Source: a virus (taxonomy: Duplodnaviria; Heunggongvirae; Uroviricota; Caudoviricetes). Taken from it: 11,387 nt of DNA. The notes under the pieces are model-generated. The model was not told the origin of the DNA, made no database searches, and saw only the letters and a program-made list of their open reading frames with translations. The translations under genes and the position numbers were made by a program. The DNA lies in IMG/VR virus record IMGVR_UViG_2654587686_000004, positions 1 to 11,387 of that record; one strand, given 5' to 3'. This document shows, piece after piece, positions 1 through 11,387 of this stretch (the stretch's first letter is position 1; every line of letters starts with the position of its first letter).

Positions 1-2
1 TG

Positions 3-2732
3 ATGGGGCAGTTTGGTGACTCCATCCAGCGAACGCAGGGGGCGATCAAAAATCTCGAGCGTCAGGCGCGATCATTTGAGCGCGCCCGCGACGCTGTCAG
101 TAAAGCGGATGCGGGTATCGTGAAAGCACGACGCCAGCTTAACGCCCTTAATCAGTTACAACGCACGGGTACAGTGCTCAGCGAAAAACAACAAAAGCTG
201 ATGCAGCAGTTAAGCACCCGGCTTGAACGCCTGAATGAATCGCGCACACGGGAAATTCAGAAAATGCGGGAACTTGGCGGAGAGCTAAAACGCCACGGCA
301 TTTCCCTGACAGGTAGCGATAACACCATCCAGCAGGCCATCAGACGCACCGAACAGTACAACAACCAGCTTGAACGCGAACGGCAGGCGCTTGCGCGTGT
401 AACGCGGGCGCGTGAGCGGTATTCGCGCGCGCAGGAAACAGCGGGAAAACTGAAAACAGGTGGTGCGCTGGCAATTGGTGCGGCAGCGGCGGGCGGCTAT
501 GCTGCCGGGCGTTTTTTGCAGCCTGCGATCGGGTTCGGCAAAGAGATGTCCCGCGTTCAGGCACTGACGCGAATCGACCAGAACAGCCCGCAGTTTAAGG
601 CGCTGCGTGAGCAGGCGTTAAAACTTGGCTCTGAAACGCAGTTCACCGCAGGCGATGCCGCCAGTGGACAGGCATTTCTTGCAATGGCTGGCTTCACTCC
701 GCAGGCCATTCAGGCTGCGCTTCCCGGCGTGCTGAGCATGGCAACGGCTGGCGGTATGGATCTCGGCGAGACGGCAGATATTGGCTCAAATATCCTGACG
801 CAGTTCGGCCTTTCTGCTGACCAGATGGACCGGGTCGGTGACACACTCACCGCAGCGTTTACCCGTACCAACACTGACCTTCGCGCACTGGGCGAAACCA
901 TGAAATATGCAGGTCCGGTGGCGGGCAAGCTGGGAATATCGCTGGAGCAGGCCGCAGCGATGGCGGGCGTGCTGGCGAATATGGGTATCAGGGGAAGTGA
1001 TGCCGGGACGGCAATGCGTGCCAGCCTGGCTCGTCTGGCATCACCGCCAAAGGCGGCAGCAGAGGCGCTGAAAGAGCTGGGCGTGTCTGTCTCGGATGCT
1101 GGGGGCAAAATGCGCCCGATGGAGGATGTGCTGGCCGACCTTTATAAAGCCACCCGCAAATACGGGGAAGTTGACCGGGTATCGTTCTTTAAGGACATTG
1201 CCGGAGAAGAGGCTTTCACATCGTTTATGGCGCTCGTTGATGCAGCGGGTGACGGTTCCTTACCCAAACTGAGAAAAGAACTTGAAGGCGCGCGCGGTGA
1301 GGCTGAACGCACAGCAAAGGTTATGGCCAACAACCTTGACGGCGATCTGAAATCACTCGGCAGTGCATGGGAAGGGGTGCGCATCCGCATTGCAGATCTG
1401 ATTGACGGTCCGCTGCGTTCTGTCACGCAGTGGCTCACGCGGGTGGTATCAAGGGTGACGGCGCTGGCGCAGGCCCATCCGGCACTGACGCGCCAGCTAC
1501 TGATAGCAGGCGGTGCGTTGCTGGCAATGACTGCAACGGTTGGCTCGTTGTCGCTGGCTATTGGTGTGCTTGCTGGTCCGCTGGCAAAACTGCGTCTTGG
1601 TTTTTCTCTCCTGACCGGATCAATGAATGCTGTCAGGGTCCTGCCAGCGCTGTGGGGAATGGTGACGGGTTCCGTTTCTTTACTGGGAGGCGCTATCGGG
1701 GCGCTGTTCAGTCCGGTTGGTCTTATCGTGGCTGCGCTTGCCGGAGCTGCCGTTCTTATCTGGAAATACTGGGATCCCATCAGGGCATTTTTTGCCGGGG
1801 TGTTCAGCGGGATTATGGAAAGGCTGACCCCGCTGCGCGAAACCTTTGAACGGTTTGGTCCTGTTTTTGACGCAATCGGAAGCGGGATCAGCCAGGTGTT
1901 TAACTGGTTTAAATCGCTGCTGTCACCGATGGAGTCCAGCAAGGAAACGCTGGATAAATGTACCAGTGCTGGCGAGATATTCGGTAACGTTCTTGGCGGT
2001 GCGTTACAGCTTGTTCTGACACCTGCAAAAATGCTACTGGATACGCTGGCGTGGATACTTGAAAAACTTGGCGTCCTTCCGGATGAAGCGGAAAAGGCGC
2101 GCAAGAAAATCGAAGACGCACAGCGTGCGGCCATTCTTCAGGACAAGGTTGCCTTGCTTCAGGGGGACCTGGCGAAAATCAATCCGCCGAAGCCTGTGGA
2201 AAATGGCAATGGCACCGGAGGTGATAAACCCAAAGACAACAAACCGCTCACAGACAGCAATACCGGGACGCTACGCAGACTCAGCAAAATTGCTGATAAC
2301 ACAGGTAAGCTGGTTGATGAGACGAAAAAACGCATTGGCCCCGGCGATATTGTCTTTAAGAACCTGCCCCGCGCACTGGCTGTTCGTGGGGAGTGGCAGG
2401 AGCGGAAGATTGCGCAGGTCAGTAAGCCTGCCCCCGCAATTAATATCACACCCGTGGTCCCGGCTCCGCTGCCTCCGGCGCTGGTCCCTGTTGTTGCGGC
2501 CAGCTCCCGCCCGGTGGCGGAGGCCATACGATCGCCAGTGGCATCAGTTCCTGCAACTTCCCGTAACCGGGAGCCGGTTGCCTCCGGATTTGGCGGTGAA
2601 ATTCATGTTCATCTGCATAACGTTGTTACACAGAATCCCCGCGAACTGGCGAAACTGGTCGGTGAAATGGTCAGGGCAGAAATGGAACGGCGCGCCCGTG
2701 CCGGGCGTGGCAGTTTTTACGATAAAGATTGA
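3..2732 (+). CDS. Phage tail tape-measure protein (P2 gpT-like), 909 aa
   Basis: Long ORF with a coiled-coil-rich N-terminus, a central core resembling TP901/P2-type tape-measure proteins, a Gly/Ala-rich hydrophobic segment and a Pro-rich C-terminus. ATG at 3-5 overlaps TGA at 1-3, so the start may be genuine and coupled to an upstream gene, but upstream sequence is not visible. Followed directly by a gpU-like gene as in P2. Identity from memory of the family, not searched. Confidence 0.88.
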   Translation: MGQFGDSIQRTQGAIKNLERQARSFERARDAVSKADAGIVKARRQLNALNQLQRTGTVLSEKQQKLMQQLSTRLERLNESRTREIQKMRELGGELKRHGISLTGSDNTIQQAIRRTEQYNNQLERERQALARVTRARERYSRAQETAGKLKTGGALAIGAAAAGGYAAGRFLQPAIGFGKEMSRVQALTRIDQNSPQFKALREQALKLGSETQFTAGDAASGQAFLAMAGFTPQAIQAALPGVLSMATAGGMDLGETADIGSNILTQFGLSADQMDRVGDTLTAAFTRTNTDLRALGETMKYAGPVAGKLGISLEQAAAMAGVLANMGIRGSDAGTAMRASLARLASPPKAAAEALKELGVSVSDAGGKMRPMEDVLADLYKATRKYGEVDRVSFFKDIAGEEAFTSFMALVDAAGDGSLPKLRKELEGARGEAERTAKVMANNLDGDLKSLGSAWEGVRIRIADLIDGPLRSVTQWLTRVVSRVTALAQAHPALTRQLLIAGGALLAMTATVGSLSLAIGVLAGPLAKLRLGFSLLTGSMNAVRVLPALWGMVTGSVSLLGGAIGALFSPVGLIVAALAGAAVLIWKYWDPIRAFFAGVFSGIMERLTPLRETFERFGPVFDAIGSGISQVFNWFKSLLSPMESSKETLDKCTSAGEIFGNVLGGALQLVLTPAKMLLDTLAWILEKLGVLPDEAEKARKKIEDAQRAAILQDKVALLQGDLAKINPPKPVENGNGTGGDKPKDNKPLTDSNTGTLRRLSKIADNTGKLVDETKKRIGPGDIVFKNLPRALAVRGEWQERKIAQVSKPAPAINITPVVPAPLPPALVPVVAASSRPVAEAIRSPVASVPATSRNREPVASGFGGEIHVHLHNVVTQNPRELAKLVGEMVRAEMERRARAGRGSFYDKD

Positions 2733-2744
2733 GGAGTCATGGCC

Positions 2745-3233
2745 ATGATGATGATCTACGGCATGTTTGTTTTTGAGCTGCGCACGCTGCCGCATCAGCA
2801 GTTACAGCAAAACAAAAGCTGGCGGCATGTGAAAAATGAACGCGTTAACCGTTCAGCAAGCTGGCAGTATATCGGTGCAGGAGATGATCGCATCGTTCTT
2901 TCTGGTGTGCTTTATCCTGAAATTACAGGTGGCGAAGTATCGCTGTCGCTGCTGACCACGCAGGCGTATACAGGACGCCCCTGGCCTCTGATTGATGGCG
3001 TCGGGCAGATTTACGGCATGTATGTGCTGACTGAAACGAATACGACCCGTTCCGAGTTTGATCGCTACGGTAAGGCGAAAAAGATAGAATTTTCACTGAC
3101 CCTTGAACGCTGTGATGAGGATTTGCGGGAGCGCCTGCAATCCTCATCGTTCAGTGATATGCTGTCCGGCTTCAAAGATAAGGTGACATCATCTCTTAAC
3201 AGCGCGGCCAGCTCCGTTAAAGGGCTGTTTTGA
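2745..3233 (+). CDS. Phage tail protein, P2 gpU-like
   Basis: ORF 2739..3233; the N-terminus MMMIYGMFVFELRTLPHQ and the internal GVLYPEITGG and WPLIDG motifs resemble P2 gpU. GAGGAG at 2731-2736 is 8 nt upstream of the ATG at 2745, which is the preferred start; the ATG at 2739 is too close to it. Stop TGA at 3231-3233. Confidence 0.85.
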   Translation: MMMIYGMFVFELRTLPHQQLQQNKSWRHVKNERVNRSASWQYIGAGDDRIVLSGVLYPEITGGEVSLSLLTTQAYTGRPWPLIDGVGQIYGMYVLTETNTTRSEFDRYGKAKKIEFSLTLERCDEDLRERLQSSSFSDMLSGFKDKVTSSLNSAASSVKGLF

Positions 3234-3240
3234 TTAACGC

Positions 3241-3270
3241 AAAACCGCTAATGGTCAGATTAGCGGTTTT
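3241..3270. terminator. Bidirectional rho-independent terminator hairpin between convergent gpU and invertase genes
   Basis: Perfect 12-bp inverted repeat AAAACCGCTAAT (3241-3252) / ATTAGCGGTTTT (3259-3270) with a 6-nt loop GGTCAG. T-runs follow the stem on both strands (CATTTTCC on +). The invertase stop codon (3260-3262) lies inside the 3' arm. Confidence 0.7.
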
Positions 3271-3859
3271 CATTTTCCTGAGTCTGCCTGGTTGTTTCTT
3301 CAGCCTGTATATCGCCTACAGGGTGATAACGATAAATCGTCGATATGCCGATGTCGTAAATGATCGCCAGTTGTTTCCTGTCATGACCGTTTTTAATCAG
3401 TCTCGCTATTTGCTCATGTTGTTCTTTTGTCAACTTCGGGCGACGTCCGCCAATGCGTCCTTGTGCGCGTGCTGCTGCCAGCCCGGCCAGTGTACGCTCT
3501 ACAATTAATTCACGTTCCATTTCGGCTAAAGCCCCCATGACGTGAAAAAAGAAACGCCCCATGGGTGTTGATGTGTCAATGCTGTCCGTCAGACTACGGA
3601 AATTAACACCTTTTTCCCGCAATTCCTCAATAAGCGTGATCAGGTGTTTCATACTTCTGCCCAGTCTGTCCAGCTTCCAGACAACCAGCGTATCTCCTTC
3701 TGATAGCGTTCTGAGCAGTTTTTTCAATCCCGGTCTGGCTGATTTCGTTCCGCTGATTTTATCTTCAAAAATCAGTTCACATCCTGCGCAGTTCAGTGCA
3801 TTGCGTTGTAAATCCGTGTTCTGGTCATTTGTTGACACACGAATATAGCCAATTTGCAT
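3260..3859 (-). CDS. Serine DNA invertase, Gin/Hin/Pin/Cin (Din) family
   Basis: Translation from the ATG at 3859-3857 starts MQIGYIRVSTNDQNTDLQRNAL and contains DTLVVWKLDRLGRS, SLTDSIDTSTPMGRFFFHVMGALAEMERELIVERT, GRIGGRRPKLT and a C-terminal helix-turn-helix (GISTIYRY). This is near-identical in motif content to Gin/Hin/Pin as recalled, with the catalytic Ser at residue 9. AAAGAGG lies 9 nt upstream of this ATG. The ORF track extends to 4045 only because there is no upstream in-frame stop. Confidence 0.95.
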   Translation of the reverse strand: MQIGYIRVSTNDQNTDLQRNALNCAGCELIFEDKISGTKSARPGLKKLLRTLSEGDTLVVWKLDRLGRSMKHLITLIEELREKGVNFRSLTDSIDTSTPMGRFFFHVMGALAEMERELIVERTLAGLAAARAQGRIGGRRPKLTKEQHEQIARLIKNGHDRKQLAIIYDIGISTIYRYHPVGDIQAEETTRQTQENENR

Positions 3860-3912
3860 AAAAAACATCCTCTTTGTTTCGTGAAAAATACATAGTTGGT
3901 ATAGGTAGGGAT

Positions 3913-3938
3913 AAAACGAAAACGTTGGTTTGGGGGAA
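3913..3938 (-). repeat. Invertase crossover site s1 (hix/gix-like, 26 bp), inverted relative to s2-s6
   Basis: Reverse complement reads TTCCCCCAAACC-AA-CGTTTTCGTTTT: a 12-bp left half identical to the other five sites, central AA dinucleotide, and imperfect right half. Resembles hixL (TTCTTGAAAACCAAGGTTTTTGATAA, from memory). Lies 53 bp upstream of the invertase start. Confidence 0.75.
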
Positions 3939-4388
3939 GGCTCTGCACTGCCCGTTGGCGTGCCCGTTCCGTGGCCTTCAGCAACACCGCCAACGGGGTG
4001 GCTGAAATGTAACGGCGCAGCATTTTCTTCTGAAATGTACCCCAATCTGGCAAAGGCTTACCCAACGTTAAAATTACCTGATTTACGCGGTGAGTTTATC
4101 CGTGGTTGGGATGATGGGCGCGGGGTGGATGCGGGAAGGGGCATCTTAAGCATACAGGGGTGGTTAACAGGAAGTCATTATCATAATATTCGGTCATGGG
4201 ACGCGTGGGATAACACGGTACTGGTGCCAAATGACAAAGGAGGGGATAGTCTGTTGTCGACAGATAACGCCGTCCGGCAAGGTGCAATTAACGGTAGATT
4301 TACCAGTCAATACAGAACGGAATCCTCAGTGGGGAATGAAACCCGCCCACGCAATATTGCCTTCAATTATATTGTGAGAACCGCATAA
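3930..4388 (+). CDS. Silent alternative tail-fibre C-terminal cassette A (collar-like receptor-binding tip); no ATG start
   Basis: Begins inside s1 with GLGEGSALPVGVPVPWPSATPPTGWLKCNGAAFSSEMYP...LPDLRGEFIRGWDDGRG and ends ETRPRNIAFNYIVRTA. An in-frame TAA lies 6 codons upstream and there is no ATG or ribosome-binding site; the tracked start is a TTG. Same architecture as the expressed H C-terminus. Confidence 0.8.
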   Translation: MGEGSALPVGVPVPWPSATPPTGWLKCNGAAFSSEMYPNLAKAYPTLKLPDLRGEFIRGWDDGRGVDAGRGILSIQGWLTGSHYHNIRSWDAWDNTVLVPNDKGGDSLLSTDNAVRQGAINGRFTSQYRTESSVGNETRPRNIAFNYIVRTA

Positions 4389-4999
4389 TGAATAACGCGA
4401 TATTAAATGATGACCTTATTGCCGTACAGGCAGGAAACATCGTCGTTTATAACTATGATGGTGAGACACGGGAATATATTTCCGAATCAACTGAATATCT
4501 TGCTGCGGGTGTCGGTATTCCGGCAAATTCCTGTTTAGATGCCCCGGGCGCACATAAAGCGGGCTATGCTATCCGCCGTTCGGAGAATTTAAATTCATGG
4601 GAGTATACGCCAGATCATCGTGGTGAAACCGTCTATAGCACTGACACGGGAAACACCGAAGAAATCACGACGCTGGGTGACTACCCGAAAAATACAACCA
4701 CTATCGCCCCGTTAACACCATACGATAAATGGGATGGTGAAAAATGGGTGACAGATACTGAGGCACAACATGGTGCCGCAGTAGAAGCGGCAGAAACCAA
4801 GCGCCAGTCACTGGCTGATGCGGCAATGGCTTCCATAAGTCTGATTCAGTTGAAGTTGCAGGCCGGGCGGAAGTTGACGCAGGCAGAAACCACCCGGCTT
4901 AACGCCGTGCTGGATTATATAGACGCACTGAACGCAATGGATATAAACATGGCACCAGATATCAACCGGCCGGAAATACCACTGGCAGCAGCCAGTTGA
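4388..4999 (+). CDS. Tail-fibre assembly chaperone (Tfa; lambda Tfa / Mu U / P2 G family)
   Basis: ATG overlaps the cassette A stop (TAATG). Sequence blocks GIPANS, DHRGETVY, KWDGEKWV, TDTEAQ, ETKRQSL and the C-terminal PDINRPEIP parallel lambda Tfa (LPANS, DHRGKTVY, KWNGTAWV, PDIEWPAVP) as recalled. Confidence 0.88.
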   Translation: MNNAILNDDLIAVQAGNIVVYNYDGETREYISESTEYLAAGVGIPANSCLDAPGAHKAGYAIRRSENLNSWEYTPDHRGETVYSTDTGNTEEITTLGDYPKNTTTIAPLTPYDKWDGEKWVTDTEAQHGAAVEAAETKRQSLADAAMASISLIQLKLQAGRKLTQAETTRLNAVLDYIDALNAMDINMAPDINRPEIPLAAAS

Positions 5000-5005
5000 A
5001 TATAA

Positions 5006-5482
5006 CTAAGCCGCCCTCACGATATAGTTAAATGCAATATTGCGGGGGCGGGTTTCACTACCACCTGTGTTACCAATACTTCCTCGTGAATGAAGCGTTG
5101 GTGATGGAATCAAACTCCCTCCTGTATTTGTGGCATCAAGCCCCCTGCCTTGTGTATATGTTTTTTTGAAAATCGTGGCCAACTCCCATTCATCCTTTGT
5201 GTCATATCCATCGTTAGCTACAACAATATGGCGGTGTTTTTCCAACATCCCGGTTTGAATGCTCAATAAAGCGCGTGCTGCATCAATTCCTCGCCCATCA
5301 TCCCAGCCGCGAATAAATTCGCCCCGTAAATCCGGTAATTTATTGGCGGGGTAGGCTTTTGCCAGTTTGGGGTAATCTTCAGAAGAAAATGCTGCACCGT
5401 TACATTTCAGCCAGCCCGTTGGTGGTGTTGCTAAGGGCCACGGAACGGGCACGCCAACGGGCAGTGCAGAGCCTTCCCCCAA
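5006..5482 (-). CDS. Silent alternative tail-fibre C-terminal cassette B; no ATG start
   Basis: Conserved 70-aa N-terminus (GEGSALPVGVPVPWP...RGWDDGRGIDAAR), unique core and conserved C-terminus SETRPRNIAFNYIVRAA. Starts inside crossover site s2. Its 3' end converges on tfa with only 6 bp between the stops. Confidence 0.8.
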   Translation of the reverse strand: MGEGSALPVGVPVPWPLATPPTGWLKCNGAAFSSEDYPKLAKAYPANKLPDLRGEFIRGWDDGRGIDAARALLSIQTGMLEKHRHIVVANDGYDTKDEWELATIFKKTYTQGRGLDATNTGGSLIPSPTLHSRGSIGNTGGSETRPRNIAFNYIVRAA

Positions 5483-5499
5483 ACCAACGTTTTCATACT
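5474..5499 (+). repeat. Invertase crossover site s2 (26 bp)
   Basis: TTCCCCCAAACC-AA-CGTTTTCATACT. The left half is the first codons (GLGE) of cassette B; the right half contains the stop codon of cassette C. Confidence 0.75.
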
Positions 5500-5999
5500 G
5501 CCCTTACGATATAATTAAAGGCAATGTTACGAGGACGGTTTTCGTTTGCAGTTGGAACAATTCTTGAAGCATCAAGGCCAATCACTTTTGGGTAAACAGA
5601 GCCATCTGTTCTTTCTATCACCATACTTCTGATTAAGGAGAAATAACTATTGTTCGTTGAGGGGTTCAAAGGCACCACTGCCCCCTTAAATGAGTCTACT
5701 GATTCCCATATTGAATAATTTTCGGTGTTTACAGTCTTGAACTCACCATAGATATTACGTATGGCATCGCCCTGAGCGGATAATATTGCTCTCCCCGCAT
5801 CCACACCACGCCCATCATCCCAGCCACGGATAAATTCACCGCGTAAATCCGGTAATTTATTGGTGGGGTAGGCTTTTGCCAGATTGGGGTACATTTCAGA
5901 AGAAAATGCTGCACCGTTACATTTCAGCCACCCCGTTGGCGGCGTGGCTGAGGGCCATGGAACGGGCACACCAACGGGCAGCGCAGAGCCTTCCCCCAA
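5493..5999 (-). CDS. Silent alternative tail-fibre C-terminal cassette C; no ATG start
   Basis: Conserved N-terminal block, unique core, C-terminus ENRPRNIAFNYIVRAV. Starts within s3; stop lies within s2. Confidence 0.8.
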   Translation of the reverse strand: MGEGSALPVGVPVPWPSATPPTGWLKCNGAAFSSEMYPNLAKAYPTNKLPDLRGEFIRGWDDGRGVDAGRAILSAQGDAIRNIYGEFKTVNTENYSIWESVDSFKGAVVPLNPSTNNSYFSLIRSMVIERTDGSVYPKVIGLDASRIVPTANENRPRNIAFNYIVRAV

Positions 6000-6016
6000 A
6001 CCAACGTTTTCATGCT
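5991..6016 (+). repeat. Invertase crossover site s3 (26 bp)
   Basis: TTCCCCCAAACC-AA-CGTTTTCATGCT. Same half-site and core as s2; overlaps the cassette D stop (TGA, 6010-6012) and the cassette C first codons. Confidence 0.75.
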
Positions 6017-6438
6017 GCCCTTACGATGTAATTAAACGCAATATTACGAGGACGAATGGTTACATAATTAACCCCATCACCTCGTGAAGGCCCTGCAAAT
6101 GAAAAACGGGAAAAGCCTGGTTGGTTAGAAACAATTTGGTCATAGTTATTGATTGAATGACCAGACCCAATGTCGAAATTACCTCCGTAATGAGAAAAAC
6201 TTGTACCATCCTGCCCTGAAAGCAGGGTACGTCCCGCATCAATCCCGCGCCCATCATCCCAGCCACGGATAAATTCACCGCGTAAATCCGGTAATTTATT
6301 GGTGGGATAAGCCCTTGCCAGTCTGGGATACATTTCAGAAGAAAATGCTGCACCGTTACATTTCAGCCAGCCCGTTGGTGGTGTTGCTGAGGACCACGGA
6401 ACGGGCACACCAACGGGCAGTGCAGAGCCTTCCCCCAA
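6010..6438 (-). CDS. Silent alternative tail-fibre C-terminal cassette D; no ATG start
   Basis: Conserved N-terminal block (one substitution, PWSSAT), unique core, C-terminus TIRPRNIAFNYIVRAA. Confidence 0.8.
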   Translation of the reverse strand: MGEGSALPVGVPVPWSSATPPTGWLKCNGAAFSSEMYPRLARAYPTNKLPDLRGEFIRGWDDGRGIDAGRTLLSGQDGTSFSHYGGNFDIGSGHSINNYDQIVSNQPGFSRFSFAGPSRGDGVNYVTIRPRNIAFNYIVRAA

Positions 6439-6455
6439 ACCAACGTTTTCATGCG
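6430..6455 (+). repeat. Invertase crossover site s4 (26 bp)
   Basis: TTCCCCCAAACC-AA-CGTTTTCATGCG. Confidence 0.75.
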
Positions 6456-6982
6456 GCTCTTACGATGTAATTGAATGCAACGTTGCGGGGGCGTGTTTCT
6501 GCTGTGCCGACAATACTGGTACTCAGTCCTGTCGCTGTTCGTTTGTTATTTTTATTCCCTTCGATAAGACAGTTGTAATCGTCATTACCAATTAACGAGT
6601 TGGTGGCATCAATACTGTCCGGGGACAAGGCATTAGTTGTGGAACTTAAAGTCAGCATCTCGTCTGAACTTGGAAGATTTTTTAATGGTGTTTCATTACG
6701 TGAAATACCCGCATAAAAAAAGGACTCATGCCTGTGCGCTTCAAAGGAGTCATCCTGAAGACTTAGCAAGGCACGCCCAGCATCCAAGCCACGTCCATCA
6801 TCCCAGCCACGGATAAATTCACCCCGTAGATCCGGTAATTTATTCGCGGGGTAAGCCTGTGCCAGTTTGGGGTAATCTTCAGAAGAAAATGCTGCGCCGT
6901 TACATTTCAGCCAGCCCGTTGGCGGTGTAGCTGAGGGCCACGGAACGGGTACACCAACGGGCAACGCAGAGCCTTCCCCCAA
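6449..6982 (-). CDS. Silent alternative tail-fibre C-terminal cassette E; no ATG start
   Basis: Conserved N-terminal block, the longest unique core (about 90 aa), C-terminus AETRPRNVAFNYIVRAA. Confidence 0.8.
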   Translation of the reverse strand: MGEGSALPVGVPVPWPSATPPTGWLKCNGAAFSSEDYPKLAQAYPANKLPDLRGEFIRGWDDGRGLDAGRALLSLQDDSFEAHRHESFFYAGISRNETPLKNLPSSDEMLTLSSTTNALSPDSIDATNSLIGNDDYNCLIEGNKNNKRTATGLSTSIVGTAETRPRNVAFNYIVRAA

Positions 6983-6999
6983 ACCAACGTTTTCATGCG
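6974..6999 (+). repeat. Invertase crossover site s5 (26 bp)
   Basis: TTCCCCCAAACC-AA-CGTTTTCATGCG; overlaps the stop codon of H (TGA, 6993-6995) and the first codons of cassette E. Confidence 0.75.
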
Positions 7000-8633
7000 G
7001 CTCTTACGATGTAATTGAATGCAACGTTGCGAGGGCGAGTTTCTGTACCTACATTTCCACTAATTTCACCAAACCGTTTTACATTACGAGAGCTAATGGC
7101 TCGTAGTGAGGAAGGCACCTTTAAACCGGGTTCGTCTGTTTTAACTATTCCCCCGTCCCCGTATGTAGCCAGTATTCCAGGGTTTACTCCTTCCCGTGCA
7201 CTTCCCGCGGCAAGTCCGCCCCCGGTCCATAATTCCATATAGTGTGCATGATCCAAAATTGTGTGTGGCTGCCAATTAAGCAAAGCGCGACCAGCATCCA
7301 CCCCGCGCCCATCATCCCAGCCGCGAATAAATTCTCCCCGTAAATCCGGTAATTTATTGGCGGGGTAGGCTTTTGCCAGTTTGGGGTACATTTCAGAAGA
7401 AAATGCTGCGCCGTTACATTTCAACCACCCCGCTGGCAGCGTGGCTGAGGGCCATGGAACGGCCACACCAACAGGCAGCGCAGAGCCTTCCCCCAAACCA
7501 AGGTAATCAAGAACTCCCTGAGTGCTGGTTTTGCCAAGAATGGCACGTCCAACACTTGTCAACGCGGTTAACGCGGCACGATCTGCCCCTGTAAAATATG
7601 GGAGTTTATCTGCTGATGTGGCAAGCTCCGCCAGCGCCGTCAGGGTGGCATCCTTCGGTTGCTTACCCGCAAGCGCGTTAGTCATGGTGGTCGCAAAATT
7701 CGGGTCATTGCCCAGCGCCGCAGCCAGTTCGTCCAGCGTGTTCAGTGCATCAGGTGACGAATCTACAAGTGCGGCAATCGCGGCCATAACGAAAGCCGTG
7801 CTTGCGATCTGGGTACTATTAGTCCCCTGTGCCGCCGTTGGTGTTGTTGGCGTTCCGGTCAGTGCCGGGCTGTTTAATGGTGCTTTCTTGTTCGTTTCAT
7901 CCATTACCGCCTTAACAGCTTTTGGTGTCGCTGCCAGCGTTTCAGACGTGCTGTTCGTGGCGCTACTGAGCTGAACAATCCCTTTTTGTGTAGTGGTGGC
8001 GTTCTGGGCGGTATATTTCCCGTTAGCCAGGTCATATGCAGCCTTAACCGCTTTCGGTGTTGCGGCCAGTGTTTCTGATTCACTGTTAATTGCACTGCTT
8101 AACTGAGTAAAACCTTTTACGGTCAGCGAGGCGTCCGGGTGACGTCGTGACTGTTCGTGCTCTGAGATTTTATCATCCACATATTTGCGGGTTGCCAGAA
8201 CCACAGACGGGTCGATTTTCAGCGTGATGGCTTCGGTGTTCGTGACAACCAGAATCATGCGGATAGTCTGGGTGCGTCCACTGCCTTCCTGCAACTGCGG
8301 TTTGTACGTTTCCGGGCAGTTTGCCACCGCAATAAGTACGCCTTCATCATCATAAAGACCAATCTCACGGATCCAGAATCCTCCCTCGTTTTCAGGGATG
8401 ATTTGTTCCGCAATAATCTGGCTCTGATTGTTAGGGTCAACACTCAGAAGATTCAGCGGTGCAATGCGTTTCTGGTTAATCAGTTTTGTTTGTGCAGGGT
8501 CTGGTGTTGGTAACACACCATTTGCATCACCAACGGCCATTTGCGTCAGATTCAGCTTACTGCCGAGCATCGTCGCGTTAGCCAGTCGTGCCGCGCCCTG
8601 ATTAGTCAGAATGGCGTAGTATTTCACTGTCAT
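6993..8633 (-). CDS. Tail-fibre protein (P2 gpH-like constant N-terminus fused to expressed C-terminal cassette F)
   Basis: 546-aa ORF whose ATG overlaps the gpI stop (ATGA). The N-terminal ~160 aa (MAVGDANG, GGFWIREIGLYDDEGVLIAVAN, KPQLQEGSGRTQT) resemble P2 gpH. Residues ~381-546, downstream of crossover site s6, have the same collar-like cassette architecture as the five silent cassettes and end ETRPRNVAFNYIVRAA. Confidence 0.93.
   Translation of the reverse strand: MTVKYYAILTNQGAARLANATMLGSKLNLTQMAVGDANGVLPTPDPAQTKLINQKRIAPLNLLSVDPNNQSQIIAEQIIPENEGGFWIREIGLYDDEGVLIAVANCPETYKPQLQEGSGRTQTIRMILVVTNTEAITLKIDPSVVLATRKYVDDKISEHEQSRRHPDASLTVKGFTQLSSAINSESETLAATPKAVKAAYDLANGKYTAQNATTTQKGIVQLSSATNSTSETLAATPKAVKAVMDETNKKAPLNSPALTGTPTTPTAAQGTNSTQIASTAFVMAAIAALVDSSPDALNTLDELAAALGNDPNFATTMTNALAGKQPKDATLTALAELATSADKLPYFTGADRAALTALTSVGRAILGKTSTQGVLDYLGLGEGSALPVGVAVPWPSATLPAGWLKCNGAAFSSEMYPKLAKAYPANKLPDLRGEFIRGWDDGRGVDAGRALLNWQPHTILDHAHYMELWTGGGLAAGSAREGVNPGILATYGDGGIVKTDEPGLKVPSSLRAISSRNVKRFGEISGNVGTETRPRNVAFNYIVRAA
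7488..7513 (+). repeat. Invertase crossover site s6 at the H constant/variable junction
   Basis: TTCCCCCAAACC-AA-GGTAATCAAGAA. The left half is identical to s1-s5 and the core is AA; the right half is the diverged H constant-region sequence (codons for VLDY). Any cassette joined here gives the same in-frame YLGLGEGS junction. Confidence 0.75.
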
Positions 8634-9238
8634 GCGTTTACTCTCAGATTATCAATTAAATGAATGGCCGGGGCAGGGAAATAATCCCCTTCGACAATAA
8701 TGGACTCCGGGGTGTAGGGATAAACCGTCAGGGCATCGCCGTGATAGCATCCCGTACCAACGAAAATCTTTCCGTTCACACTCAGGCTGATCGCCAGCCC
8801 CGTCAGATGGCGACTTACTGGTTTTGCATCCGCAATAAGGCGCTCAAGTTCCTGATACATTTCATCGGTGATGCCCTGATCAAGTACTCCGACAACAATG
8901 CGAAATGTTCCTGGCTCCTCGTTGAGTTGCCACCACTCCTTTACTTCAATCAGGTAGCCGAGAGGCTCCACGGCTCTTCGCAGTGCGCTGATGGTCCCTT
9001 TGTGTCGGTGTATCAGCCATGCATCACGAATTACCTGTCGCTTTGTCTCTTCCGGCCAGTTGCGATCCCAGCGGTCAACGGAAAACGCCCAGGCGAGATA
9101 AGGCAGCAGATGCACCGGGCAGGTATCCGGCGACCACAGCGTATTGAGGTCTACCGGAATGTCTGTAATGCGTGTTCCGACGGCTTCGGCACAACGCATG
9201 AAACTGCTGGCTGATGGTGGTAACAACGAATTACTCAT
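8630..9238 (-). CDS. Baseplate/tail protein, P2 gpI-like
   Basis: From the ATG at 9238-9236 the protein reads MSNSLLPP...NTLWSPDTCPVHLLPYLAWAFSVDRWD...RLIADAKPVSRHL, resembling P2 gpI. This ATG overlaps the last codon and stop of gpJ (ATGAGTAA); the tracked ORF start at 9271 would overlap gpJ by 41 nt and is less likely. The stop overlaps the H start. Confidence 0.85.
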   Translation of the reverse strand: MSNSLLPPSASSFMRCAEAVGTRITDIPVDLNTLWSPDTCPVHLLPYLAWAFSVDRWDRNWPEETKRQVIRDAWLIHRHKGTISALRRAVEPLGYLIEVKEWWQLNEEPGTFRIVVGVLDQGITDEMYQELERLIADAKPVSRHLTGLAISLSVNGKIFVGTGCYHGDALTVYPYTPESIIVEGDYFPAPAIHLIDNLRVNA

Positions 9239-10127
9239 TGCGTCCACCTTCGCTGATGGTGAATGACTCACAGCGCGCCGCCTGTATGTCGCTGATGGCC
9301 ATATTCTGTGTGGGTTCGATTATCTCCACGCGTTGCACGCCGTGCACATGCAGTGCGGCAGCAATGGCGGACAACGCCACGTCCTGACCGATAAGCCCCT
9401 GTTCAGCCAGCCACTTCCTGAATGACGATTCCGCCGCGGCCAGAATAGGTTCGGATTCCGGACCGGGGTAAAAGTACAGTTTTGCATTCAGCCGCCATGT
9501 CACGATTCTGGCGCTCTGTACGGTCAGGCGGTCGGCCACCGGGCGGGTATCCTCTGCATTCAGAACGGCGCGAACGGTATTAAGCAACGCCTCCGTTGCA
9601 GTGCCGTCGCCCTCAGTGGACAGGATGGAAAGCGTCACACAGGCCGGAGACGGGCTGATGGCCCGCGCATCACGCACCAGACCGCTGGCGCTGCGTGCAA
9701 AATACTCGTATGCGCCTGACGGGCCTGCAACACTCAGGCCGTCATACGCCCGTTGCGCCCGTAGTCTCAGCGAGGTGTCGCTCTCCATCACCGCGTCGGT
9801 GGTATCCGTTGCCGGAGTGATAACCAGGCGCTTTGTGTTCATATTGCCCGCGAGGTTGTCCAGGTTTGTCCCTGAACCGTGGCTTAACATACAGGCGCGT
9901 GCGCCCTCATTGACCCGCTGGCGTAACAGCATTTCACGAAACGACATGGTTTGAGCGATAACGTTAAGGGGTTCCGATTCCAGCTCCAGCGCGGCGGAAA
10001 CGGCTTCACGCTGTTCGGCGGGATAGGACGCAATCATCATGGCCTTTGTGTCAGCCAGAATTGCCTCAAAATCAGGCTCCGCGATGATGGCGGGTTCCGG
10101 TAACTGGGAAAGGTCAACAGCAGGCAT
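9231..10127 (-). CDS. Baseplate assembly protein, P2 gpJ-like (baseplate J family)
   Basis: 298 aa, MPAVDLSQLPEP..., with blocks (RQRVNEGARA, YDGLSVAGPSGAYEY, SPSPACVTLSILS, RPVADRLTVQSA, LHVHGVQRVEI) resembling P2 gpJ. ATG is 3 nt after the gpW stop. Confidence 0.9.
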   Translation of the reverse strand: MPAVDLSQLPEPAIIAEPDFEAILADTKAMMIASYPAEQREAVSAALELESEPLNVIAQTMSFREMLLRQRVNEGARACMLSHGSGTNLDNLAGNMNTKRLVITPATDTTDAVMESDTSLRLRAQRAYDGLSVAGPSGAYEYFARSASGLVRDARAISPSPACVTLSILSTEGDGTATEALLNTVRAVLNAEDTRPVADRLTVQSARIVTWRLNAKLYFYPGPESEPILAAAESSFRKWLAEQGLIGQDVALSAIAAALHVHGVQRVEIIEPTQNMAISDIQAARCESFTISEGGRNE

Positions 10128-10130
10128 GAT

Positions 10131-10481
10131 TTACTCTCTCAGCGTGATGGTTAATTCAACATTCTGCATGGTCTGCATGACAGTGCCCGACAGCGTCACC
10201 CCGGCGCGGCCTCCTGCCTTCCAGACAACGTCGATAGCGTCCAGGGCAATGCGGGGTTCCCATCGCGTCAGTGCAATCACGGCAGCACTCATGCATTGCA
10301 GACGCGTGGTGTTATTCATGGGTTCGTCAATCAAATCAGGCACAAGGCTGCCATATTCCCGTCGCATAACCCGGCTTGCCAGCGGGGTGGTCAGGATGTC
10401 CCTGACTGACTGTTTCAGGTGCTCCATATCGTTCAGGTTTCCCGTTCCGTCCGGGTTCATTCCTGTGTAGCGGGTTGTCAC
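10131..10481 (-). CDS. Baseplate wedge protein, P2 gpW-like (GPW/gp25 family)
   Basis: 116 aa, MTTRYTGMNPDG...SRVMRREYGS...LTRWEPRI, resembling P2 gpW. The start codon is GTG (10481-10479) overlapping the gpV stop (GTGA). Confidence 0.85.
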   Translation of the reverse strand: MTTRYTGMNPDGTGNLNDMEHLKQSVRDILTTPLASRVMRREYGSLVPDLIDEPMNNTTRLQCMSAAVIALTRWEPRIALDAIDVVWKAGGRAGVTLSGTVMQTMQNVELTITLRE

Positions 10482-11059
10482 TGCGGGCCTCCTGTCGAAT
10501 CGCTGCCACCTTTAACGCCACCGTGTTTATGCGTATGCACGGTAATGCCGTTTGAGGTGAAATTGCCGCCGCTGTGCGTGATATTGCCGCTCATCTTTCC
10601 CCCTTTTGTGACGTCAAGCGTCGCCGTTCTCAGAAGGTCTGTGCATTCCACGACGGGCGTATCCAGTGTCACGCTGACGGATGCCTGCAGGGTGGCTGTT
10701 TTCATGCCGCTGGCGCTCAGTGCGCCTGCGTCCGCGTCGTAGCGGAACACCGCGCCATCCGGCGCGCTGACCACGATTTCTTTCAGGCTTTTGCCGGGGG
10801 CCGGAATGGCATCACTCCACAGGCTGCCAATTATCATGGCGGTTTCCGGGTTGCCGCCAATGCAGGCAATTGCCACCTGTTCGCCTGGTGATGGCGGCAG
10901 CCACACATTGAAGGCTCCCGCGCGCGTGGTGTTCCAGCGCAACCAGCCTGTTTCCAGTTCGCCGCTGCGAACGCGCACGCGCCAGGACTTCTCATCAACT
11001 TCAGAGATGATCCCGGTGCGGATGATATTGCTCAGTAGCCGCATGAGTTCTGCGCTCAC
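10478..11059 (-). CDS. Baseplate spike/hub protein, P2 gpV-like
   Basis: 193 aa with IRTGII, WLRW, PSPGEQV, a Gly-rich middle and the C-terminal GITVHTHKH, resembling P2 gpV. GTG start overlaps the gpS stop (GTGA). Confidence 0.88.
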   Translation of the reverse strand: MSAELMRLLSNIIRTGIISEVDEKSWRVRVRSGELETGWLRWNTTRAGAFNVWLPPSPGEQVAIACIGGNPETAMIIGSLWSDAIPAPGKSLKEIVVSAPDGAVFRYDADAGALSASGMKTATLQASVSVTLDTPVVECTDLLRTATLDVTKGGKMSGNITHSGGNFTSNGITVHTHKHGGVKGGSDSTGGPQ

Positions 11060-11387
11060 CGTACAGCCTCCGCAATCCGGCCCAGCACCGTGTTATAAAT
11101 CAGGCGCTCATCTGCCTGGCTGATACCCAGCAGCTCACGTACCGGGTAATCGGTGAAAATGCCCGGCGCAACCTGATCGCGCTCACCGAACTGATGAACG
11201 CGTGCAATACGTGCGGCCACGCCGCTGTAACCCACCGTCACACCGGAAGCATCTGCACGGGCTTTCAGGTAGCGGGCGGTGCGCAGTTTTGCGAACATGG
11301 GGACGCGCTTTGTGCTGTCCTGGTTGATGCGCCGGGTGCGTATTTCCAGAAAACGGTCGATGTCATCCCGGTAAAACGTGCGGATAT
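11056..11387 (-). CDS. Tail completion protein, P2 gpS-like; 5'-truncated by window end
   Basis: The reading frame is open from the window edge (11387) to the stop at 11056-11058; the ATG at 11298 used by the ORF track is internal. Position immediately upstream of gpV and the C-terminal sequence are consistent with P2 gpS; family assignment is less certain than for the others. Confidence 0.65.
   Translation of the reverse strand, partial: IRTFYRDDIDRFLEIRTRRINQDSTKRVPMFAKLRTARYLKARADASGVTVGYSGVAARIARVHQFGERDQVAPGIFTDYPVRELLGISQADERLIYNTVLGRIAEAVR

Follow-up and report, generated by a model that had tools for sequence, protein, structure and literature searches.

Results

Gene content and orientation of the tail region

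We analysed 11,387 nucleotides of viral DNA (Caudoviricetes; positions 1 to 11,387 of IMG/VR virus record IMGVR_UViG_2654587686_000004; hereafter the window), which carry a compact tail region of the phage P2 type. A listing of open reading frames together with Pfam and PHROGs profile scans (Table 1) recovered a P2-like contractile tail set, with homologues of gpU, gpT, the N-terminal domain of gpH, gpI, gpJ, gpW, gpV and gpS; the families PF06995, PF10145, PF12571, PF09684, PF04865, PF04965, PF04717/PF18715 and PF05069 all exceeded their gathering scores. In P2, the genes run V W J I H G, Z/fun, FI FII E E' T U D ogr, all in one direction. The window departs from this canonical P2/Peduovirus tail order: T and U on the + strand converge on a serine DNA invertase gene and on the H-I-J-W-V-S genes, all on the - strand, and U is not followed by D. 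A preliminary description of this DNA had likewise reported convergent operons, a tail module rearranged relative to co-directional P2 and no gpD after U, and these claims hold; tblastn searches with P2 and P88 gpD as queries found no gpD anywhere in the window.

Only 26 nt separate the stop codons of U and the invertase gene. A hairpin with a 12-bp stem and a 6-nt loop (3241-3270; AAAACCGCTAAT-GGTCAG-ATTAGCGGTTTT) lies between the two convergent genes, its right arm containing the invertase stop codon (3260-3262) and its stem the last invertase codons. Its folding energy is -15.6 kcal/mol on the + strand RNA and -16.9 kcal/mol on the - strand RNA. On the + strand, the 12-bp stem is followed by TTTTCATTTT, and a terminator scan called the structure terminator-like. 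The hairpin probably serves the FI-U transcript as an intrinsic terminator and, more weakly, the invertase transcript as well. Of the bidirectional hairpin described earlier, the stability of the stem on both RNAs is borne out; the scan call belongs to the + strand only, and the U tract on the - strand is weak. A scan of the window against Rfam at gathering thresholds gave no match.

The same layout in close relatives, and the predicted position of gpD

Megablast against phage records matched the window at 93-95% nucleotide identity to Citrobacter phage Shae_phiSM and to Escherichia phages 520873, P884B11, 500465-2 and P88, all members of the genus Xuanwuvirus in the family Peduoviridae. The aligned part amounts to 62% of the window and includes T, U, the invertase gene and I-J-W-V-S; the remainder is the variable fibre array. 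For comparison, the International Committee on Taxonomy of Viruses (ICTV) demarcates genera at ~70% identity over genome length. P88, whose layout we checked by tblastn and, for D, FI, FII, E' and U, by Pfam, reads R S V W J I H G (+), G' H' (-), invertase (+), U T E' E FII FI (-), D ogr (+), and continues past ogr with hok and then the integrase end. Shae_phiSM has the P88 gene order according to both its record and tblastn, and T, U, the invertase gene and H to S of the window match P88 and Shae_phiSM gene for gene. The Xuanwuvirus phages P88, P884B11, 520873, 503458, 500465-2 and Shae_phiSM share the order and orientation of the window, including the convergent U/invertase junction, and carry D-ogr beyond FI.

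We read eight NCBI loci encoding the exact gpU protein of the window, and all eight have hok(-) ogr(-) D(-), FI FII E E' T U (+). In seven, U is directly followed by an invertase gene (-). The complete H I J W V S R (-) run survives in five, and in the rest it is broken by deletion or by an insertion sequence. The same gpU protein was present in 645 blocks of an assembly collection, and the contiguous U/invertase junction occurs in 620 of 5426 complete E. coli genomes (11%). Nothing beyond the departure from P2 itself speaks for an assembly artefact or a strain-specific rearrangement of this contig. The same layout is found in independently sequenced, induced phage genomes, and together the phage matches, the exact-gpU loci and the E. 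coli junction count rule an artefact out; we regard its probability as negligible.

Alignment to an exact-gpU relative (L003) sets window position 1 at position 7263 of that locus, in which the start codons of D and FI lie 157 bp apart. By this comparison, gpD should be found ~2.5-3.6 kb to the left of the window, on the - strand and divergent from FI. The preliminary description had allowed that gpD might sit just outside the window; alignment to relatives does put it there, but beyond FI. The suggestion that the whole F operon was inverted was correct for FI-FII-E-E'-T-U and incorrect for D and ogr, which keep the orientation of the V-H operon beyond FI. gpU is the final gene of the inverted FI-U block.

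The record of Shae_phiSM (OR565851.1; L002) labels the gpD homologue (PF05954; 2294-3403) as 'ogr/Delta-like zinc finger' and the tail sheath (Phage_sheath_1; 3561-4745) as 'late control gene D protein', and these annotation errors hide the divergent D/FI arrangement. P88-like elements have a toxin gene of the hok/gef family between ogr and the end of the prophage (34928-35068 in P88, 3010-3150 in L003), a position at which P2 has none. A P88-like prophage with a gpU 98% identical to that of the window was also encountered on a 226-kb contig assigned to 'Vagococcus sp. WN89Y' (Firmicutes; NZ_JBQPOM010000071.1; L015), where it is probably enterobacterial DNA contaminating the assembly.

Survey of gpU loci and gene trees

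The layout was surveyed in the best 80 of 337 GTDB gpU loci from species-representative genomes, onto which P2 and P88 genes were mapped by tblastn. All 41 loci with a gpU 54-98% identical to that of the window, and with D and FI in the fetched stretch, read ogr- D- FI+ ... U+; where downstream sequence was present, U was followed by H- I- J- W- V- S- R- or by inv-. Two more loci with partial sequence have U+ facing H- or inv-. The loci with a gpU 41-52% identical all have the P2 order, FI+ ... U+ D+ ogr+ (36/36). Inverted loci span about 20 named genera of Enterobacterales (Salmonella, Serratia, Trabulsiella, Kosakonia, Enterobacter, Mixta, Izhakiella, Symbiopectobacterium, Pantoea, Erwinia, Kluyvera, Klebsiella, Edwardsiella, Providencia, Morganella, Rouxiella, Photorhabdus, Pectobacterium, Xenorhabdus and Citrobacter), and most of them are without any invertase gene. 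A stem-loop similar to that of the window directly follows U in most of the inverted loci, and these structures would fit termination between convergent operons.

Among phage records, 453 have a gpU match. Salmonella phage SEN4 (Senquatrovirus) and Klebsiella phage Kp4860-2 (Reginaelenavirus), with gpU proteins 53-62% identical, resemble the window in having an inverted FI-U block and a retained D-ogr; they differ in having no invertase gene, and in them U directly faces the fibre assembly gene or H. The preliminary description had suggested a mosaic or rearranged tail module and had named, as a finding that would contradict it, that the arrangement is the standard layout of a well-described phage group. 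That is what was found, since three ICTV genera, namely Xuanwuvirus, Senquatrovirus and Reginaelenavirus, have the layout in their annotated reference genomes, and the idea of a mosaic or of a rearrangement private to this locus is abandoned: the layout is invariant across a clade of P2-like phages and prophages.

When trees were built by neighbour joining for FI, FII and U, which lie in the block, and for D, which lies outside it, each of them had one branch that splits all inverted loci from all those with P2 order. Two other loci deserve mention. In Trabulsiella odontotermitis (L017), U and the invertase gene are followed by I(+) H(+) and a second invertase gene instead of H(-) I(-), which has the look of an additional rearrangement, or else of a tandem or degenerate element. 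The xenorhabdicin locus was considered as a member of the inverted group and rejected; by its description, the variable fibre region lies between H and the sheath gene, and it appears to have the P2 order.

Age and origin of the probable inversion

The window and its relatives share their gene set with P2 (S, V, W, J, I, H, T and U, and in relatives also FI, FII, E, E', D and ogr), with protein identities of 26-64%. Both have an Ogr-type zinc-finger activator, and in both D-ogr adjoins the attachment end of the prophage. The lineage of the window differs from P2 in the inverted orientation of FI-U, in the separation of D from the F operon and in an invertase gene at the Z/fun position. Peduovirus magyaro (E. 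coli O157:H43 T22) is a P2-like phage that, like the window, has an invertible fibre segment and a serine invertase gene after H-G, but its genes run H G, G' H', inv, FI..U D ogr, all co-directional, which is the canonical P2 order. The P88 layout is therefore exactly one step away from the orders of P2 and P. magyaro, namely an in-place inversion of FI-U that leaves D and ogr untouched.

Such a block could instead have come from another phage lineage and been inserted backwards in this prophage. Exchange is indeed clear in the fibre and baseplate genes: P88 I, H and G are 64-95% identical to their P2 counterparts at the protein level, against ~45% for the backbone, and neighbour-joining trees of V, J and W do not separate the two layouts, consistent with exchange of the baseplate module between both layout groups. 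The FI-U block behaves differently. Its proteins (FI 46%, FII 42%, U 46%, T 33%) compare with D 49%, V 47%, portal 47%, terminase 44% and capsid 41% outside it; with FI, FII and U at 42-46% and D, portal, terminase and capsid at 37-49%, the F block has diverged from P2 as much as the remaining genes, and therefore was not separately imported. D lies outside the block, yet its tree splits as cleanly as those of FI, FII and U, and the layout is the same in 41 loci from about 20 host genera. From the module-wise identities and the tree splits, mosaic import is rejected for FI-U and D and holds for the fibre and baseplate genes; we consider a recent mosaic origin of the block highly improbable.

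The adjacent serine invertase might also have flipped the F block, as a programmed event or by accident. Its gene stands exactly at one breakpoint, between U and the fibre array, and Cin and Gin are able to use quasi-sites. All six crossover sites of the window nevertheless fall within 3918-7508, with none in or beyond T/U; the FI/D spacer of one relative has no site-like sequence, and no inverted repeats were found at the block boundaries. Moreover, the inverted layout mostly occurs without an invertase gene, P. magyaro combines the same kind of invertase with a co-directional FI-U, and no surveyed locus of the clade has the block in the other orientation. With the crossover-site, FI/D-spacer and boundary-repeat searches all negative, inversion driven by the invertase was rejected, and we judge it slightly less probable still than import.

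The gene identities, the layout, its conservation across hosts and the coherence of the trees are direct observations, and their simplest reading is one old, in-place inversion of FI-U that a large clade inherited.

Candidate late promoters of the inverted layout

Four Ogr-dependent promoters that carry a TGT-N12-ACA-like box drive the late genes of P2 (PMC3931495). A late promoter was expected to have an activator site of this kind with its centre near -55, ahead of a late operon. A strict TGT-N12-ACA pattern had no match in any late intergenic region of P88 or P2; the activator sites annotated in P2 are themselves imperfect against the strict consensus, and sites were compared with them directly instead. 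In the P2 GenBank record, the start sites of the divergent promoters PP and PO are 111 bp apart and have one box between them.

In P88, the motif TGTTGT-N10-SSAGAAC (that is, TGT-N12-AGA) occurs twice only. One copy is in the P/O spacer (14214-14236), at 74 nt from the start codon of P and 81 nt from that of O; the other is in the FI/D spacer (33253-33275), at 89 nt from the start codon of FI and 69 nt from that of D. Both boxes resemble the three activator sites annotated in P2, and also the TGT-N12-ACA consensus (PMC3931495), and their spacings are similar to those at PP/PO of P2. Related TGTTGT-N10-NCAGAC boxes are found in the D/FI spacer of many surveyed loci. As a lead, the FI/D spacer is a candidate second divergent late-promoter pair with one shared activator site.

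The invertible fibre array and other features of the window

The protein encoded next to U has the N-terminal resolvase catalytic domain and C-terminal HTH_7 of the Hin/Gin/Cin/Pin switches, and its gene starts with an ATG at 3859 that has AAGAGGA 9 nt upstream. Beside it lies the invertible fibre array (Table 1), in which a search with the crossover-site pattern GAAAACG-TT-GGTTTGGGGGAAGG gave six matches in the window against none expected by chance. The sites flank invertible DNA in inverted orientation, one on the + strand and five on the - strand. Each of the four - strand cassettes is preceded by an exact site; the sixth site lies inside H, where the peptide at the junction reads ...VLDYLGLGEGSALPVG.... 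The repeats of the array fall into the families D1/D2 and I1-I5. Since five of the sites point the same way, no single inversion can do without the + strand site; as in Min of p15B, most cassettes can be reached only by successive inversions.

Table 1. Genes, cassettes and crossover sites located in the window
Feature	Position	Strand	Profile match or remark
Tape-measure gene T	3..2732	+	Pfam PhageMin_Tail 3.4e-58
gpU	2739..3233	+	Pfam Phage_P2_GpU PF06995 5.5e-39; phrog_76 tail protein 5e-75
Hin/Gin/Cin-type serine DNA invertase, 199 aa	3260..3859	-	Resolvase 1.5e-51, HTH_7 1.4e-12; phrog_125 1e-98
Invertible fibre array	3905-7560	both	six crossover sites, six alternative Collar-domain C-termini
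Crossover site	3918-3940	+	sole + strand copy
Silent fibre C-terminal cassette F	3930..4388	+	Collar 4.7e-15; phrog_523 tail collar fibre protein 1.5e-70
Tail-fibre assembly gene, functional counterpart of P2 gpG	4388..4999	+	Caudo_TAP 3.3e-31; phrog_105 5e-91
Four silent fibre C-terminal cassettes	5006..5482, 5493..5999, 6010..6438, 6449..6982	-	Collar 1e-14 to 5e-15
Crossover sites	5472-5494, 5989-6011, 6428-6450, 6972-6994	-	exact matches
Tail-fibre gene H	6993..8633	-	Pfam Phage_tail_fib 1.7e-62, Phage_fiber_2, Collar
Crossover site inside H	7486-7508	-	3 mismatches; marks the constant/variable junction
gpI	8630..9238	-	Pfam Tail_P2_I 3.5e-53
gpJ	9231..10127	-	Pfam Baseplate_J 7e-19
gpW	10131..10481	-	Pfam GPW_gp25 1.4e-13
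gpV spike	10478..11059	-	Pfam Phage_base_V, Phage_spike, Apex
gpS, C-terminal part	11056..11387, runs off the window end	-	Pfam Phage_tail_S 2.6e-16

The array is a known kind of multi-inversion system. As in the window, the serine invertases Gin (Mu), Cin (P1) and Min (p15B) stand beside alternative fibre C-termini, and their crossover sites have the same 12-2-12 form (GAAAACG-TT-GGTTTGG... in the window), with multiple sites in Min. The window differs from these systems in its P2-like backbone, in having five of its six sites in direct orientation and in having one cassette with a chaperone gene; it differs from P88, a two-state H-G / G'-H' switch, in its six sites, six fibre C-termini and single assembly gene. 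P2 gene G, described earlier as replaced by the array, is not simply replaced, the gpG-type Caudo_TAP gene lying inside it. That assembly gene follows only one of the six fibre cassettes (F), and the four cassettes downstream of H are without one; either those four receptor-binding tips can fold with no chaperone of their own, or the one Tfa serves them in trans. Many E. coli chromosomes and one 93-kb plasmid also have arrays with 4-8 'phage tail protein' fragments.

At the left edge of the window, alignment from nt 77 to the 935-aa T of L003 places the first ~25 codons of T beyond the window. gpI starts with an ATG at 9238, preceded by GAAGGTGGA. Towards the right edge, S and V overlap by 4 nt (11056-11059), whereas P2 has a terminator, orf30 and the PV promoter between these genes; the window has no orf30/PV region. 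Because of this overlap, R-S-V-W-J-I-H is probably one transcription unit, unlike in P2, and the P88-like group is probably without a separate promoter for the V operon.

Discussion

We consider it very probable that the window is the tail region of a P88-like (Xuanwuvirus, Peduoviridae) prophage of an Escherichia-type host, with FI-FII-E-E'-T-U inverted in an old common ancestor. Its layout is the norm of a large sequenced group of P2-related prophages, within which the window is an ordinary P88-like tail region. The publications on P88, phiSM, SEN4 and Serratia PP4 leave the FI-U inversion uncommented, and searches on Xuanwuvirus and on inverted P2-like tail genes likewise found no comment on it. 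The Serratia PP4 prophage paper compared PP4 with P88, SEN4 and KSP20, and rearranged tail operons have been noted in other P2-like phages, such as Smp131.

The P88-like order can be written as V-W-J-I-H-(G / fibre switch / inv) > < U-T-E'-E-FII-FI, then D-ogr >. In this order, the FI-U and R-S-V-W-J-I-H operons are transcribed towards each other, with the putative stem-loop terminator (3241-3270) between them and the invertase gene tucked in. gpD is no longer the last gene of the F operon; it heads a D-ogr unit of its own, divergent from FI across the 157-bp spacer. That spacer may act as a bidirectional pair of Ogr-dependent late promoters built like PP/PO of P2, in which one central TGT-N12-AGA activator box would serve both FI and D-ogr, giving gpD-ogr its own late transcript.

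Several points weigh against this interpretation, and they concern its steps separately. The position of gpD was obtained by alignment to relatives rather than read from the flanks of this genome. On the - strand the hairpin is followed only by UUUU and then GCG, and the scan did not call it a terminator. The V, J and W trees are without the clean split seen in FI, FII, U and D. The survey covered the best 80 of 337 loci, so that more distant Peduoviridae lie outside the sample, and an independent second inversion may have occurred elsewhere in the family. The more distant members, from Providencia, Xenorhabdus, Photorhabdus and Pectobacterium, have no exact TGTTGT in the spacer. Finally, the P88 motif was derived from the two sites that it recovers, which makes the count of two circular; therefore only its absence elsewhere and the likeness of the sites to those of P2 count.

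In conclusion, an in-place inversion of FI-U that left D and ogr in their original orientation is the simplest account of the layout of the window and its relatives. That a single ancient event of this kind defines a large, unnamed clade of Peduoviridae and rewired the P2 late programme is a broader proposition, which we consider evenly balanced. If true, three or more ICTV genera would belong to the clade, together with prophages of about 20 Enterobacterales genera and those in 11% of complete E. coli genomes. gpD-ogr would then be a separate late unit, and a single central Ogr box would serve both it and the FI operon, a second instance of the PP/PO design. The layout predicts a second divergent pair of Ogr-dependent promoters (PF/PD), and P88 is inducible. 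The orientation of FI-U relative to D provides a simple synteny marker for a large sub-clade of P2-like prophages, perfectly discriminating in this sample, which could aid prophage typing and annotation, for example of the mislabelled Shae_phiSM record.

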